64,000 nucleotides of DNA from the NCBI GenBank assembly GCA_043754515.1, contig JAYUUO010000150.1:40904-104903 (forward strand). The letters run 5' to 3'. This document shows, one piece after another, positions 20,373 to 25,904 of this stretch. The number at the start of each line of letters is the position of its first letter. The stretch's first letter is position 1. A model generated the notes under the pieces. That model was given only the letters and a program-made list of their open reading frames with translations, searched no databases and was not told the origin of the DNA. A program made the position numbers and the translations under genes. The stretch is from Armatimonadota bacterium. GTDB taxonomy: Bacteria > Armatimonadota > Armatimonadia > Armatimonadales > Armatimonadaceae.

Positions 20373-21869
20373 CTAGCCGTAGATCGCCCGGAACTTAGTG
20401 TTCAGATAGCGCAGGTACGAGCGCGACTGCGCGGGTTCCCCGCAGACCCGCTCGACCAGTTCGGCGGGGAAGTAGCGGCGGCCCGGCGCGTGGACGTTCT
20501 CGCGGAGCCAGAGGAGGAGCGAGTCGAACTCGCCCCGCTCCAGGTCGGTCGCGATGTTCGGGTGATCACCGGTCGCCTTATCGTACAGTTGCGACGAGAG
20601 CATAGTACCCAGCGCGTAGGTCGGGAAGTAGCCGAACAGAGCCGCCGACCAGTGGACGTCCTGCAAACAGCCGTTCGCGTCCGAATCCGGCGCGATCCCG
20701 AGATACTCCTCCATCAGTGTGTTCCACGCGCCGGGAACGTCCTTAACCGCGAGTTCCCCCGCGACCATCCGCTTCTCGATCTCGAAGCGTAGCATGATGT
20801 GTAAACAGTAGGTAGCCTCATCCGCTTCGACCCGTATATAGGACGGCTCCACCTTGTTGATCGCGCGATAAAATGCGTCCACGGAAACGTCGTCCAGCGT
20901 GCCGGGGAACGCCTTCCGCAGGTCGCCGTAGTAGACGTCCCAGAACACGCGGGAGCGGCCAACCAAATTTTCCCAGAGCCGGGATTGTGACTCGTGGATG
21001 CCGAGCGACGCCGGGCCGGAAAGCGGGGTGAAGTCGTCCTTCATCTGGAAGCCCTGTTCGTAGAGCGCGTGCCCGGTCTCGTGGATCGTGCCCATCAGCG
21101 CGGCGGGTAGCCAGTCGGCCTCGAAGCGTGTCGTGATGCGCACGTCATCTTTGCCGAACGAGGTGCAGAACGGGTGTACAGCCTTGTCCTGCCGCCCGCG
21201 CCTGAAGTCGAACCCCATCTTTTTGATGATCGCCTCGCCGAAGGCGAGTTGACCGGCTTCGGGGAAGCCGCGTCGGAGGGGGGAGTCGTCCTGTTGTGGG
21301 CAGCTCTTGATGTGACGTACCAACTCGACAAGTCCCGCGCGCAGTTCGCCGAAGACACGGTCTACCTCCGCCGTGGTCATCCCCGGCTCGTATTGATCCA
21401 GCAGGGCGTCGTACGGGTGGGTGACGTAGCCCAGATAATCCGCCTTGCGCCGCGAAAGTTCGAGTAGTTTCTCCAGGGTCGGGGCGAAATGGGCGAAGTC
21501 ATTTTCGGCTCGCGCCTTCACCCACACCTCATGCCCCAGCGTCTCGGCTTTGGCTAGTTCGGCGACGAGGCTGGACGGGATTTTCACGGCGAGATCGTAG
21601 TCGCGGCGCACCGCGCGGAGCGTGAGACGCTCGTCAGAGTCCGTGCCTAGGTCCCTCGCTTCCGCCTCGGCGGCGGCAAGCAGAGTGCCGGTTTCGGTCG
21701 CGGTGAATCGCTCGTGCGCAATGGTGCCTAGGACGGCGAGTTGCTCGGCCCGTTCCGCCGTGCCCCCGGTGGGCATGTAGCACTGCTGATCCCACCCGAG
21801 GACGGCGGCGGCACTGGCGATGTGGCCAATCTCTTTGCAACGGGCCATCAATTTATCGTAGTTTTCCAT
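20373..21869 (-). CDS. Carboxypeptidase, peptidase family M32
   Basis: HPFC, DVRITTR, HETGH, HESQSRLWEN, GCLQDVHW, GYFPTY. Confidence 0.95.
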   Translation of the reverse strand: MENYDKLMARCKEIGHIASAAAVLGWDQQCYMPTGGTAERAEQLAVLGTIAHERFTATETGTLLAAAEAEARDLGTDSDERLTLRAVRRDYDLAVKIPSSLVAELAKAETLGHEVWVKARAENDFAHFAPTLEKLLELSRRKADYLGYVTHPYDALLDQYEPGMTTAEVDRVFGELRAGLVELVRHIKSCPQQDDSPLRRGFPEAGQLAFGEAIIKKMGFDFRRGRQDKAVHPFCTSFGKDDVRITTRFEADWLPAALMGTIHETGHALYEQGFQMKDDFTPLSGPASLGIHESQSRLWENLVGRSRVFWDVYYGDLRKAFPGTLDDVSVDAFYRAINKVEPSYIRVEADEATYCLHIMLRFEIEKRMVAGELAVKDVPGAWNTLMEEYLGIAPDSDANGCLQDVHWSAALFGYFPTYALGTMLSSQLYDKATGDHPNIATDLERGEFDSLLLWLRENVHAPGRRYFPAELVERVCGEPAQSRSYLRYLNTKFRAIYG

Positions 21870-22137
21870 GTGGCTATGGTATCATCGGGGGGCGGAAAAA
21901 AGCGTCGCGTGTTGCCAGTTAAAGATAATCAACCGATCCGACCGATCCGAGGTTTGATAAAGAGACGATGCGGGCAATAACATCTGTAAATGCCTCGATT
22001 AGAAGGCAACGCGCCTGACGAATCCTCTTTCCCCGTGCTTACCTACGACCGACTGTAAATGTTTAGATAAAGGATGGCAGTGCTTGTCAGCACCAATCGC
22101 TCGAACTAGCGACACCGCCGACGGCGGTGGCGGTTTC

Positions 22138-23451
22138 ATGTCCGGCGCGCCCGATAGTATCGGATCCCCCGCGCCGGGCGACATAGGCAGTGCTCTGCTA
22201 AACTGGCTCAGTGAGCCGGACGGCCCGTCCCGCTGGCGCGGTCTGTGGGGCGAATGGCGACCAGCGGATGGTGACGAGGAGGCCGTCGCGCTCGCGGCGG
22301 AGGGATCGGCACGCCACGAATTGCTCGACGTCCTGACCGCGATTACCGCCGAGTCCGACCAGCGGCTCGCCCTCGCCCTCTGGTACATCCGCGCCCGCGC
22401 CGGTTGGAACATGATGAACCTCCAAACGGGGTACGAGGCGAACGCGGGCTTCTGGAACCTCCCGGCGATCTATGGGCTGTCCGCGCTTTCTACCCTGATC
22501 GGTTCCATCGAGCCGTTGCTCCCCACGGCGTTCCGAAACATCACGCAGGACTTATGGGCGCAAGCCACGGTGCAGGCGGTGACGCCGGAGCAGATCGCTC
22601 CCCAGGAGTCGGACGAACTCGCGACCGCGCTACCGGTCGGCACCAACTTCGGCGTGCATGGCGAGAATGACGCCCTGCGCGACCGGCTCCAGCAGTTGCG
22701 GCAACTGCTTAACGAACGCGACCGCGAACGTTCCCTGCTCGCGGCGGAGGTTGGCGCGACCGTGGTCGCCGACGCTACGGAAGCTGCCCGCCAGAAGTTG
22801 CGCCGCCTCAACAGCCGCGTTGCGGAGCAGGCCCGCGAGATCGCCCAGTTGCGCATGGAGCGCGACGAGATTGTCGGGCATCTGCCCGGACGCGAACCGG
22901 CGACCGACGCCGCCGAGAAGATACGCGCCCTGACTCAATCGGTGCGGCAGCTCGAAGGCAGACTCGCTGTGCGGGAGTCGGACCGCCGCTCTTTCGAGAA
23001 AGAACTCGGCACCTCCAGCGCGGAGGACATACTAGCCTACGTTCAGGAGTTGCAGAGTAAGGAGGCGAAACTACGGAACCGCGTTTCCTTGCTACAAACG
23101 AACGGACTGTTTCTGTTGCGGGAACTCGGCGGGGACGACACTGATCCCGGCGCGGTCAGCACCGACGACGGCTGGTTTTGGATGGCCTCCGAGCGGGCGC
23201 GCGCGTTGAAAGAAGCGGTGGCGGACCGCGCGGCGGATCTGGCGTGGCTCCGGGCACAGTGGGAGCGGGTGGGTCTGGAGACGGGAACCGCCGACCCCAA
23301 CATCGCCGCCGACCGGATCCGCGCCCTGAACATGGAGCTACGTCGCGTGCAATCCGAAGTGGAGGAGGTGTTCGGTAAGAGTGCGTTCGACGAGTCGAAC
23401 GCGTCGCCGTTGCCGCCGCTTCCCCCATCACTCTTCGGGCGCAGACCTTAA
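22138..23451 (+). CDS. Uncharacterised coiled-coil protein (first gene of putative PYP operon)
   Basis: Long ORF with heptad-rich C-terminal two-thirds; start uncertain (22084 or 22138). Confidence 0.7.
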   Translation: MSGAPDSIGSPAPGDIGSALLNWLSEPDGPSRWRGLWGEWRPADGDEEAVALAAEGSARHELLDVLTAITAESDQRLALALWYIRARAGWNMMNLQTGYEANAGFWNLPAIYGLSALSTLIGSIEPLLPTAFRNITQDLWAQATVQAVTPEQIAPQESDELATALPVGTNFGVHGENDALRDRLQQLRQLLNERDRERSLLAAEVGATVVADATEAARQKLRRLNSRVAEQAREIAQLRMERDEIVGHLPGREPATDAAEKIRALTQSVRQLEGRLAVRESDRRSFEKELGTSSAEDILAYVQELQSKEAKLRNRVSLLQTNGLFLLRELGGDDTDPGAVSTDDGWFWMASERARALKEAVADRAADLAWLRAQWERVGLETGTADPNIAADRIRALNMELRRVQSEVEEVFGKSAFDESNASPLPPLPPSLFGRRP

Positions 23452-23492
23452 TCGGCTCGCCTGATCTACTACCTTGAAGGGAACTAACTATC

Positions 23493-24188
23493 ATGTTCGC
23501 GGGTTTATCCGGAGCATCACGCCAGCAACAGGAACACGAGCGGAGTGTCGCCACCAAAGTGCTGGAAAGCATGGAGGGCCAACTGATCGCCGTCTACGCC
23601 GAGAAGGAGTTGTTACACAACGAGATCGGCGTCAGCGAGGCGACGGAAATCATCGCGCTCGTGAACGCTCTCGTGGAGCGGGTGCGGCAACACGAGCCGG
23701 ACTTCGACTACCAGGGCGGCGGGGACGCGGGAGGGACGGACGCCGTTGGAGAAACAGCGGAAAGCGACCTGCCGGAAGGCGTGGACGGGTTCAAGGATCT
23801 GTCGCACCGCGTCCGCATCCTCACCGGGACTATCAACAGCATGGAGGCGCAACTGATTGACGTTTACGCGGATCGGGAATTACTCTACCGTGAGGGCGGG
23901 ATCAAGCAGACGCAGGATGTGTTGACCCGGCTACGCGAGAACGAGAAGTTGCGCGCCCAGGTGTCCGTGATGGAGGATCAGGTCGCCGCCCTTTACGCAC
24001 AGCGTCACGCGCTCACGCAGGGGCTAGGCAGGAGCGACGCCGGTGAAATCGTGGCTATCGTCCGCGCGATAACCGACGCGCTCGAAACCGCGCAACACGC
24101 CGCGGCAAGGCTGGTGCCCGCCCCCCGCGAGTCGGCGGGAACGCCGCCCGACGACGTCCACGCCACAGTCGCGGACGAGGTGAACTAG
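23493..24188 (+). CDS. Uncharacterised helical repeat protein (3 x ME.Q...YA.[KR]..L unit)
   Basis: SMEGQLIAVYAEKELL / SMEAQLIDVYADRELL / VMEDQVAALYAQRHAL; SD-like AAGGGA. Confidence 0.75.
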   Translation: MFAGLSGASRQQQEHERSVATKVLESMEGQLIAVYAEKELLHNEIGVSEATEIIALVNALVERVRQHEPDFDYQGGGDAGGTDAVGETAESDLPEGVDGFKDLSHRVRILTGTINSMEAQLIDVYADRELLYREGGIKQTQDVLTRLRENEKLRAQVSVMEDQVAALYAQRHALTQGLGRSDAGEIVAIVRAITDALETAQHAAARLVPAPRESAGTPPDDVHATVADEVN

Positions 24189-24203
24189 AAACGAGAATCG
24201 CAT

Positions 24204-24641
24204 ATGTTTAACTTGAAACGAAACACGAACACCCCGATGGGGACGCTGGGCGCGACACCTGGGGTCCTCCCGGCCAATACGATGGCGCGCCTGTCGCAAA
24301 TGTCGCGCGGCGAACTAGACTCCCTATCGGTTGGGGTAATTCAGGTGGACGACGCCGGGGTTATTCTGCGCTATAACAAGACGGAGAGCGAACTCGCCGG
24401 ATTTCGCGCCGAGGATGTCGAGGGTAAGAACCTGTTCTTCGAACTCGCGCCCTGTATGAATAACGGCTTGGTATATGGCAAGTTCCGGTCGGGCGTTGAT
24501 GCTAACAGTTTGGATCAGGAGTTGGTATACGCGCTTACCTACCGCATGCGTCCGGTGCTGACGCAGATCCGCCTGTGGCGTGACATCCAAACCACGACCA
24601 ACTGGATTTTGCTACAACGCATCGGCACGTCCAGCAAATAG
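24204..24641 (+). CDS. pyp: Photoactive yellow protein (PYP) homologue, PAS-fold blue-light receptor
   Basis: Gap-free alignment to recalled Halorhodospira halophila PYP with offset 15: Y57=Y42, E61=E46, GKNLF..LAPC84=C69, YGKF, Y113-R-M115=Y98-x-M100, W134=W119. Confidence 0.9.
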   Translation: MFNLKRNTNTPMGTLGATPGVLPANTMARLSQMSRGELDSLSVGVIQVDDAGVILRYNKTESELAGFRAEDVEGKNLFFELAPCMNNGLVYGKFRSGVDANSLDQELVYALTYRMRPVLTQIRLWRDIQTTTNWILLQRIGTSSK

Positions 24642-24644
24642 CGG

Positions 24645-25850
24645 CTACCGCGTTACGAACCGCCCTGGATTCAGCGAGTCGCCCGGATCCAGGGCGGTTT
24701 TTACGCGGCGCATGAGCGGCAGGGATGCTGCCTTGGGGAACCATACGCACTCGTCTTTGCCACGGTGCCATAGCGGCGCATGAACCATCGTGTAGCCGGT
24801 GAGGGAAGAACGGGCTCGCGTGCTTATTAGCTCTATCATTCCGCTCATCGCCGCCGCGACTCCGTCACTCCACTCCGGGAAGTACGCCTGCGTGGCCCCC
24901 GTGCCATACCATGTCTCTATGACCGTGCCCACCTCGGCAAGCATCGCGGACATTGTACAGAGTGCCCCCCATTGTTCGTCTACAGGCCCGACCGCGCGGA
25001 ATACCACGGCTCCATGCGGGGAATCGTGCGCAGTCAGTTCCTCAATTATGGAAACCGCATGCCGGGACGTAACGCTTGCGCGGGCTAGCCCGGCGCACTT
25101 CTCCGCCTCCGACACGACGGCTTCGGCGAACCCGTTGAAGTGCGCGACGAAGTAGGTTCCCGTCTCGTCCCGGCGCCCGTAGAAGCGGGTGGGCGAGACC
25201 GCGTTCAGGGTATCGCGGATGAATCCGCTGATACTGGCCGCGTTGTCATCTCCAGGACGTACCAGCACCGTGCGCTCCGCCTCCGGTAGCGGCGCGACTT
25301 TGAATGTCGCCTCCGCGAGAACCCCGAGGGTGCCTAGCGCGCCGATGTGCAACTTAGGGATGTCGTAGCCGGTGACGTTTTTGACGACTTTGCCGCCGCC
25401 CTTGACCAGTTTTCCCTCCGCGTTTACGAACGACAGACCGATCAGCCAGTCCCGCGCGGTGCCGTAGCCGAGCCGGGACGCCGTGAATGCGTTGGCGGCG
25501 AGTACGCCGCCGACGGTCGCCTCGGCGGGGCGAGGGGGATCGAGCGGAAGAAACAGGCCGTGCGGGCGTAAGGCGTCTTGCACGGCGGCGATGGTTACCC
25601 CCGCCTCGACTGTGATCGTTAGGTCGCCCGGCTCTATCGCGACGACGCGGTTTAGCCCGCCTGTCTCGATCAGGGTGAACGCGCCGGGGCGGGGCGGGTA
25701 GCCGTAGTCCTGCCCGGTACCGCCGCCATTCGGCACGACGCGGTGCCCCGCTTCGACAGCCTCAAAAACCGCGTCGGCTAGTTCCGCGATGGTTTGCGGC
25801 GAGGCGACGCGGGTCGGTTCCGCGCCCAGCGTCTCGGTGTAGTTCGTCAT
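24645..25850 (-). CDS. FAD-binding oxidoreductase (GlcE/glycolate oxidase FAD subunit-like)
   Basis: DLTITVEAG, ATVGG, GGKVVKNVTGYD, GALGTLGV, LDP...LNPGR. Confidence 0.88.
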   Translation of the reverse strand: MTNYTETLGAEPTRVASPQTIAELADAVFEAVEAGHRVVPNGGGTGQDYGYPPRPGAFTLIETGGLNRVVAIEPGDLTITVEAGVTIAAVQDALRPHGLFLPLDPPRPAEATVGGVLAANAFTASRLGYGTARDWLIGLSFVNAEGKLVKGGGKVVKNVTGYDIPKLHIGALGTLGVLAEATFKVAPLPEAERTVLVRPGDDNAASISGFIRDTLNAVSPTRFYGRRDETGTYFVAHFNGFAEAVVSEAEKCAGLARASVTSRHAVSIIEELTAHDSPHGAVVFRAVGPVDEQWGALCTMSAMLAEVGTVIETWYGTGATQAYFPEWSDGVAAAMSGMIELISTRARSSLTGYTMVHAPLWHRGKDECVWFPKAASLPLMRRVKTALDPGDSLNPGRFVTR

Positions 25851-25904
25851 ACGGGGCATTGTGCGACGCGGCGGGGCTAAAATCCTGCTCTCGGCGCGGT
25901 CGGA

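Follow-up and report, generated by a model that had tools for sequence, protein, structure and literature searches.

Among textbook photoreceptors is photoactive yellow protein (PYP), a blue-light sensor of bacteria, and the locus described here raises the question of which proteins receive its signal. The locus lies in a stretch of 64,000 nucleotides (nt) from an Armatimonadota bacterium (assembly GCA_043754515.1, contig JAYUUO010000150.1, positions 40,904 to 104,903 of the forward strand), referred to below in its entirety as the window. Three genes, A, B and pyp, stand there on one strand, with gaps of 41 nt between A and B and 15 nt between B and pyp. This layout and its opposite-strand flanks, described in an earlier sequence-only reading of the window, were borne out by the coordinates of the open reading frames. 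A and B represent two undescribed partner families of a real and conserved PYP module, and they are likely candidates for the signalling partners of PYP since the families accompany it in several phyla. The features on which the argument draws, with lengths in amino acids (aa) and isoelectric points (pI), are the following.

22138-23451, plus strand: gene A, 437 aa from the ATG or 455 aa if TTG 22084 is the start; pI 4.8.
22186..22575, plus strand: the A domain within gene A, about 130 aa, predicted to be all-helical, with a divergent WYIRARAGWNMMNLQTGY form of the family motif YIELKSxWxxLNTxxNY.
22981..23055, plus strand: the best-kept of the degenerate B-type repeats, at aa 282-306 in the A tail, the one weak unit to score above shuffled sequence (9.0 bits; best shuffle 4.6).
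23493-24188, plus strand: gene B, 231 aa, with three acidic 'MExQLxxLY...LG.S...' repeats; pI 4.7; no transmembrane segment.
24204-24641, plus strand: pyp, 145 aa, a single-domain, clade-B-type PYP; pI 8.8.
24453-24455, plus strand: the codon of pyp equivalent to Cys69 (C84).

That the third gene encodes a stand-alone PYP with the chromophore cysteine was upheld. The protein matched 33 PDB sequences of solved PYPs (E 3e-21 to 2e-11) and exceeded the cut-off of the Pfam PAS family; Y42, E46 and C69 are kept as Y57, E61 and C84, and M100 and W119 are likewise retained. Six of the nine p-coumaric acid pocket residues given in PMC12826048 (I31, Y42, E46, F62, V66, A67, P68, C69, F96) are identical in the window PYP, and the three changes (F62L, V66L, F96L) are all conservative. 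The curated cut-off of TIGR02373 was missed (99.8 bits vs 143.05); according to PMC9664959, no more than about 20% of PYPs are recognised by this model, and clade-B members fall below its cut-off. Across 39 aligned PYP copies Cys69 was invariant. A tree of 49 rows placed the window PYP, together with that of genome G023, as a long-branched sister inside a supported Armatimonadales set, and it shares a set supported at 97/90 with the PYP of locus L030. The B protein of L030 is identical to Armatimonas rosea WP_184202964.1 and the A protein of that locus falls in the same cluster as WP_184202962.1; the A. rosea PYP appears as clade B in the list of Xing et al. 2022 (PMC9664959). In its grouping the window PYP sits with PYPs that this survey assigns to clade B. 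A scan of the genome contigs with the window PYP alone as query gave no match.

Several related PYPs depart from the canonical form. Those of L030, L031, L032 and L035 have an N-terminal extension of about 55 aa that opens with a possibly amphipathic helix, and several carry Glu46Gln. Replacement of Tyr42 by Val or Phe, or of Glu46 by Gln, is common among the Phycisphaerales PYPs (L076-L083, L095-L099), which suggests shifted spectra, and hpaB-like hydroxylase genes lie upstream in two of these loci (L083 and L095). 'Blind' PYPs that have lost Cys69 and/or Tyr42/Glu46 (L034:5741-6118, L067:5471-6451, L068:5406-6419, L111:328-1857) keep the partner repeats or are fused to them.

The association of A and B with PYP extends well beyond the window. 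In 71 genomes of the class, 13 of 13 PYP loci other than that of the window carry both A and B; eight weaker PYP matches were set aside for this count, seven of them with E values of 2e-5 or higher, for the most part PAS segments within long proteins, and one a short C-terminal fragment at a contig end. A set of 401 genomes of the phylum gave 17 with A, 16 with B and 14 with PYP, and each of the 14 has both partners; beyond the 14, G028 and G029 carry a degenerate PYP beside A, and in G345 a contig end interrupts the locus. Where the A motif alone served to find loci, which come from Planctomycetota, Armatimonadota, Spirochaetota and one Ca. Kapaibacterium, pyp was present at 13 of the 19 from genomes and at all 11 from metagenomes, with several near-duplicates among them. 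Four of the six genome loci lacking pyp have it elsewhere with B directly upstream, and the other two, both drafts, gave no PYP. A tally of 57 rows, one of them a cut-off duplicate, yielded 56 distinct pyp loci from four phyla, with B directly upstream in 54, downstream in one and fused to A nearby in one. Homologues of the partners thus clearly co-occur with pyp elsewhere, as the earlier reading requires: in the class, in the phylum and in the position of B. In the proteobacterial control, none of the six pyp loci checked (of 16 plasmid-borne) had A or B, and tblastn of one A domain and one B protein against plasmids found no match, though 16 of the records hold PYPs. B is the most constant neighbour of pyp, and the A and B families track clade-B PYP. 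Ratios of dN/dS against the G023 orthologues were 0.18 for A, 0.16 for B and 0.05 for PYP; the three genes are under purifying selection and all are therefore real.

The description of both partners as coiled-coil repeat proteins can be refined: in B three copies of an acidic helix-turn-helix 'QLxxLY' repeat are clear (aa 25-58, 114-150 and 160-193), whereas A combines a single weak repeat unit with a new globular domain and so amounts to more than a coiled coil. The repeat units of B score 27-54 bits, the best of 200 shuffles reaching 3.0; all 30 repeat segments that were aligned have the Gln and the Tyr of QLxxLY, and the smallest members of the family comprise 61-72 aa. Median pI values are 4.5-4.7 for the A domain, 4.7 for B and 8.9 for PYP. 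A short beta-hairpin closes many other B proteins, a tail absent from the window B in the alignment; the hairpin was seen in the B proteins of the Phycisphaerales loci named above. An AlphaFold2 model of a natural fusion of A domain and B repeat (P0171; pLDDT 83, pTM 0.59) shows the repeat as a helix-turn-helix; its two parts give no indication of packing against each other, which says nothing on binding in trans. Prediction of a complex of the window PYP, the A domain and two B repeats scored 0.01, evidence neither way.

Protein A consists of a separate, globular helical domain of about 130 aa at the N-terminus and a helical tail with degenerate B-type repeats. Searches with the profile of the domain yielded 316 representatives at 50% clustering, many of them stand-alone proteins of about 135 aa. 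None of 15 members matched a Pfam family. For a stand-alone member AlphaFold2 predicted a fold of six helices with confidence (pLDDT 95); the best matches to this model among PDB structures were generic bundles (VIA, Z 8.2, root-mean-square deviation about 4). Foldseek returned no match to the model at E 0.001, a PDB sequence search with the A profiles gave nothing significant except designed helical proteins, and the ESM Atlas held no usable match for the A domain or B. The A domain is a new domain, predicted to be all-helical, with no Pfam, NCBIfam or close PDB match. Two conceivable kinships were discarded: likeness to the helical domain of the orange carotenoid protein has no Pfam support, and profile comparison found the A domain unrelated to the B repeat (probability 0.2). 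In the window subfamily of A, Arg replaces the conserved Glu and Lys of YIELKSxW (YIRARAGW), and the accompanying PYP is long-branched; these changes may together represent a specificity switch.

The partners had also been read as free of any classical output domain. This stands in so far as neither A nor B scores above the cut-off of any Pfam or NCBIfam family, the sole matches being sub-threshold ones to coiled coils, but the A family cannot be called free of such outputs, since other bacteria have the A domain joined to CheA-like proteins. Among the 64 relatives longer than about 190 aa (of 150 listed) that were scanned for fusions, 13 join the A domain to CheW and/or HATPase domains: in 10 it forms the N-terminus of a CheW-bearing CheA-like body that has no Hpt match and in three it lies behind the CheA body. 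Compared with CheA kinases (Hpt, dimerisation, HATPase, CheW), the A domain thus occupies the place of the N-terminal Hpt in the 10 and follows the body in the three, whereas the window A has no kinase part. By sequence the A domain is not itself an Hpt: Pfam found no Hpt in 15 A domains, and the sole motif His is present in 20 of 54 sequences, the invariant columns being W, L, Y, N and P. Its model has six helices, the Hpt fold four. Fusions of the A domain to B repeats are common, and one locus, L111, encodes three B repeats and a PYP in one frame, that PYP keeping Cys69 and lacking Tyr42 and Glu46. In Leptospira-type genomes B precedes pyp, with a divergent chemoreceptor gene next to them, and far from pyp another chemoreceptor is followed by a second B and an A-B fusion (MCP-B-A); other Leptospirales show the order chemoreceptor-B-pyp-A. 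GGDEF/EAL neighbours occur at some loci. In other families, CheA-like or degenerate CheA-like genes were seen in or beside A-B-pyp loci (L069:6968-8482, L070:6312-7892, L078:1776-5423, L101:6866-8575).

Two PYP surveys (PMC9664959 and PMC12826048) state that the signal chain of PYP is unknown and name kinases, chemoreceptors, GGDEF/EAL, pCL and TAL as neighbours; neighbours of the A and B type appear there only as 'None' or 'hypothetical'. Literature searches found no description of either family, subscription papers lying outside their scope. The pyp-pcl-tal operon of Halorhodospira halophila resembles the present system in its single-domain PYP with Y42, E46 and C69 (PMC12826048) and in pCL and TAL, the genes of which are linked in many window relatives and present in the window's genome. 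It differs in being described with three genes only, whereas two conserved non-enzyme genes precede pyp in the window. The sensor-less chemoreceptor that Xing, Gumerov and Zhulin (2022) reported beside Leptospira pyp was also found here; the genes between the two, like the two before the A. rosea pyp, are given as 'None' in the accessible part of that survey and are not treated there as families (PMC9664959). For Leptospira biflexa, PMC12826048 lists a two-gene pyp operon of a 123-aa PYP and a 134-aa hypothetical protein with no function given, and its Table 1 shows that this PYP, of the same group as that of the window, photocycles. The 134-aa B from one of the pyp loci examined here is identical to ABZ95977.1/ABZ99694.1; unlike in the window, the A gene (LBF_2209) stands apart from pyp, in the company of a second B and a chemoreceptor gene.

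The one proven PYP partner in the literature searched is the Rhodobacter PBP. In R. capsulatus (RCAP_rcc01067) it is, according to 10.1101/2021.06.01.446672, an acidic protein of 142 aa encoded next to pyp that binds only the light-induced state of PYP and forms higher oligomers, the pI of the pair being 9.4 for Rc-PYP and 3.9 for PBP. As an acidic partner of a basic PYP it provides a working model for B; it is predicted to contain helices plus sheets, with N-terminal helices, whereas the window A and B look all-helical.

The genome of the host contains a second A-B-pyp operon (C287:51-2737, L001), whose products are 27% (A), 27% (B) and 54% (PYP) identical to those of the window. The window operon is a diverged duplicate of it, and that the three genes were duplicated and diverged together suggests cognate A/B/PYP pairs. 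The end of contig C287 overlaps by 19 nt the contig C156 that carries the pCL gene (pcl at C156:34934-36389, L157). The second operon is the more canonical, is continued by pcl across the contig break and is conserved in G023, G024 and G025. The window pyp has neither pcl nor tal adjacent to it. The host pCL is 65% identical to a pyp-adjacent pCL, and the one aromatic amino acid lyase of the host (TAL-like) is 55% identical to a pyp-linked lyase; supply of the chromophore is plausible, given a pCL gene by the second pyp operon and a TAL-like lyase in the genome. Two orphan A-family genes have neither B nor pyp beside them (C136:26538-27668, L002; C193:3130-3945, L064), the former lying after greA with orthologues in G024 and G025.

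The reading that accounts best for these data is that A-B-pyp constitutes a conserved module in which B would bind PYP in a light-state-dependent manner and pass the signal to the A domain, acting as a new adaptor. Drawn as it is from gene order, fusions and charge, it is held here to be evenly balanced between right and wrong. PYP, loaded with p-coumaric acid by the host pCL and TAL-like enzymes, would photocycle, as expected from PYP chemistry, and the acidic helix-turn-helix repeats of B would dock the basic PYP in one photostate. Such docking is suggested by B being the most constant neighbour of pyp, by its fusion to PYP in one case and by an opposition of charge like that of PBP and Rhodobacter PYP. 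With one PYP site per repeat, B would be multivalent. A could join the assembly through its own degenerate repeats, so that light, in shifting the assembly, would change the availability of the A domain, and A would signal to an output of the host which state the B-PYP complex is in; a relay is suggested by the repeats that A shares with B and by its domain being one that is plugged into kinases. In motile hosts the A domain is wired to CheA-like proteins and chemoreceptors; in the present host it would act on another target, and the window operon would serve as a second channel with kinetics different from those of the second operon. The earlier proposal of a PYP-binding scaffold or polymer that would transduce light is partly supported, through the co-occurrence of the partners with pyp and the natural B-PYP fusion. 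A broader version is more tentative and falls somewhat short of an even chance: B and the A domain may be the standard transducers of clade-B PYPs, multivalent B capturing one photostate and A coupling it to chemotaxis kinases, and hosts that, like the present one, have no chemotaxis machinery possessing an A-B-PYP assembly that is self-contained and switched by light, in two orthogonal copies whose kinetics differ.

With two defined protein families, the open question of PYP's partner comes within direct test. A B unit of about 60 aa and a stand-alone A domain of about 135 aa provide minimal parts, G050 has a minimal set with an A of 136 aa, a B of 63 aa and a PYP of 122 aa, the L. biflexa PYP is already characterised and A. 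rosea is a cultured relative. A small light-switched binding pair, if true, would be a new optogenetic part.

Several findings weigh against signalling through B and A. A or B occurs with no detectable PYP in G288 (98% complete) and G140 (96%), which are true exceptions, and also in G519. Among 121 Leptospirales genomes A was found in 40 and PYP in 47, with both in 39, A alone in one and PYP alone in eight; as eight of 47 PYP-bearing genomes have no A match, A is not obligatory, and a deeper A profile run on five of the eight gained one marginal match. Of 35 pyp loci with both flanks complete, only 29 have A within 3 kb. Genomes that are akin do not count as independent, and the A motif was the basis on which many loci were chosen, B the basis for none. 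In three loci (L089, L091, L093) A stands beside pcl and/or tal with no pyp, which fits a role in maturation as well, and the module is kept with PYPs that have lost Cys69 or Tyr42/Glu46 (G039, G028, G029, L111). Finally, the host genome (92.7% complete) gave no match for MCP, CheW or flagellin, and chemotaxis wiring can therefore not be the output of the window copy.

Among the alternatives, that in which A and B are maturation or recovery factors survives best, though it is considered unlikely. They would hold apo-PYP, aid the loading of p-coumarate by pCL or reset the photocycle, and would not be outputs. The nearly invariable position of B next to pyp suits such a role, as does the company that A and B keep with pcl and tal, pCL-TAL fusions and the three pyp-less loci included. 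Maturation factors would not be expected, however, as fusions of A domains to CheA-like proteins, nor in company with a chemoreceptor at a distance from pyp, pcl and tal, as in the operon that A and B form in Leptospira-type genomes; both are moreover kept with PYPs that cannot bind chromophore, and proteobacterial PYPs do without them. A shade less probable again is that A and B have one another or chemoreceptor arrays as their working partners, being merely co-regulated with pyp and making no direct contact with PYP. The frequency of A-B fusions, the MCP-B-A operons that lack pyp and the few PYP-negative genomes with A or B all point this way; against it, B stays at pyp even where A, pcl or MCP has moved away, a B-PYP fusion exists, and all three genes were duplicated and diverged together in the host genome. 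It is improbable that PYP acts here as a PAS domain gated by a ligand and that the module reads a non-light input (free p-coumarate, another phenolic, redox state or whether PYP is loaded). In its favour, the partners are retained with PYPs that have lost Cys or Tyr/Glu, Tyr42 or Glu46 is missing from many Phycisphaerales PYPs, and the window PYP has three pocket changes and no adjacent pcl. Against it, the window PYP retains Y42, E46, C69 and M100, Cys69 was invariant in the alignment, the host encodes chromophore enzymes and a rhodopsin, and the PYP of L. biflexa, which belongs to the same group, photocycles (PMC12826048 Table 1).

The host had been taken to be probably non-phototrophic. This is right for chlorophyll, in that no reaction-centre gene was found in the genome at the completeness stated, but the rhodopsin gene (C270:687-1505, L166) limits it: its product is closest to xanthorhodopsin and Gloeobacter rhodopsin (E 5e-81 to a solved one), and its helix-C residues resemble a DTE proton-pump motif. 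A search of the host for gas-vesicle families gave no match, nor did the control.

The surroundings of the three genes and the putative transcription signals are listed below.

20373-21869, minus strand: M32 carboxypeptidase gene, the divergent flank upstream of A.
21954..21983, plus strand: weak match to a sigma-70 site, no more than chance would give, between A and the divergent gene upstream of it.
24645-25859, minus strand: FAD-linked oxidase gene, the convergent flank downstream of pyp.
24657..24703, plus strand: terminator-like long hairpin and T run directly after pyp, overlapping the 3' end of the convergent oxidase gene.

The promoter scan upstream of A found one site where 0.5 +/- 0.6 were expected. 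The closest homologue of A, P0016, has 455 aa, and A may therefore start at TTG 22084, which would give it the same length. The hairpin was not flagged by a consensus terminator scan; the region 24640-24715 folds at -45.7 kcal/mol (z -6.8), a value reached by none of 200 shuffles. Pieces of the stretch were contained in two sequencing runs, probably of DNA (ice metagenomes from one study), and the one true RNA run examined had no match to it. Elsewhere, single-chain pCL-TAL fusions were seen in or just after the pyp operon (L030:7385-10210, L069:8448-11372, L072:3277-6084), and at L028:3044-5902 pyp is followed by a single frame of 952 aa that combines pCL and an M20 peptidase, which are separate genes in the window's genome.

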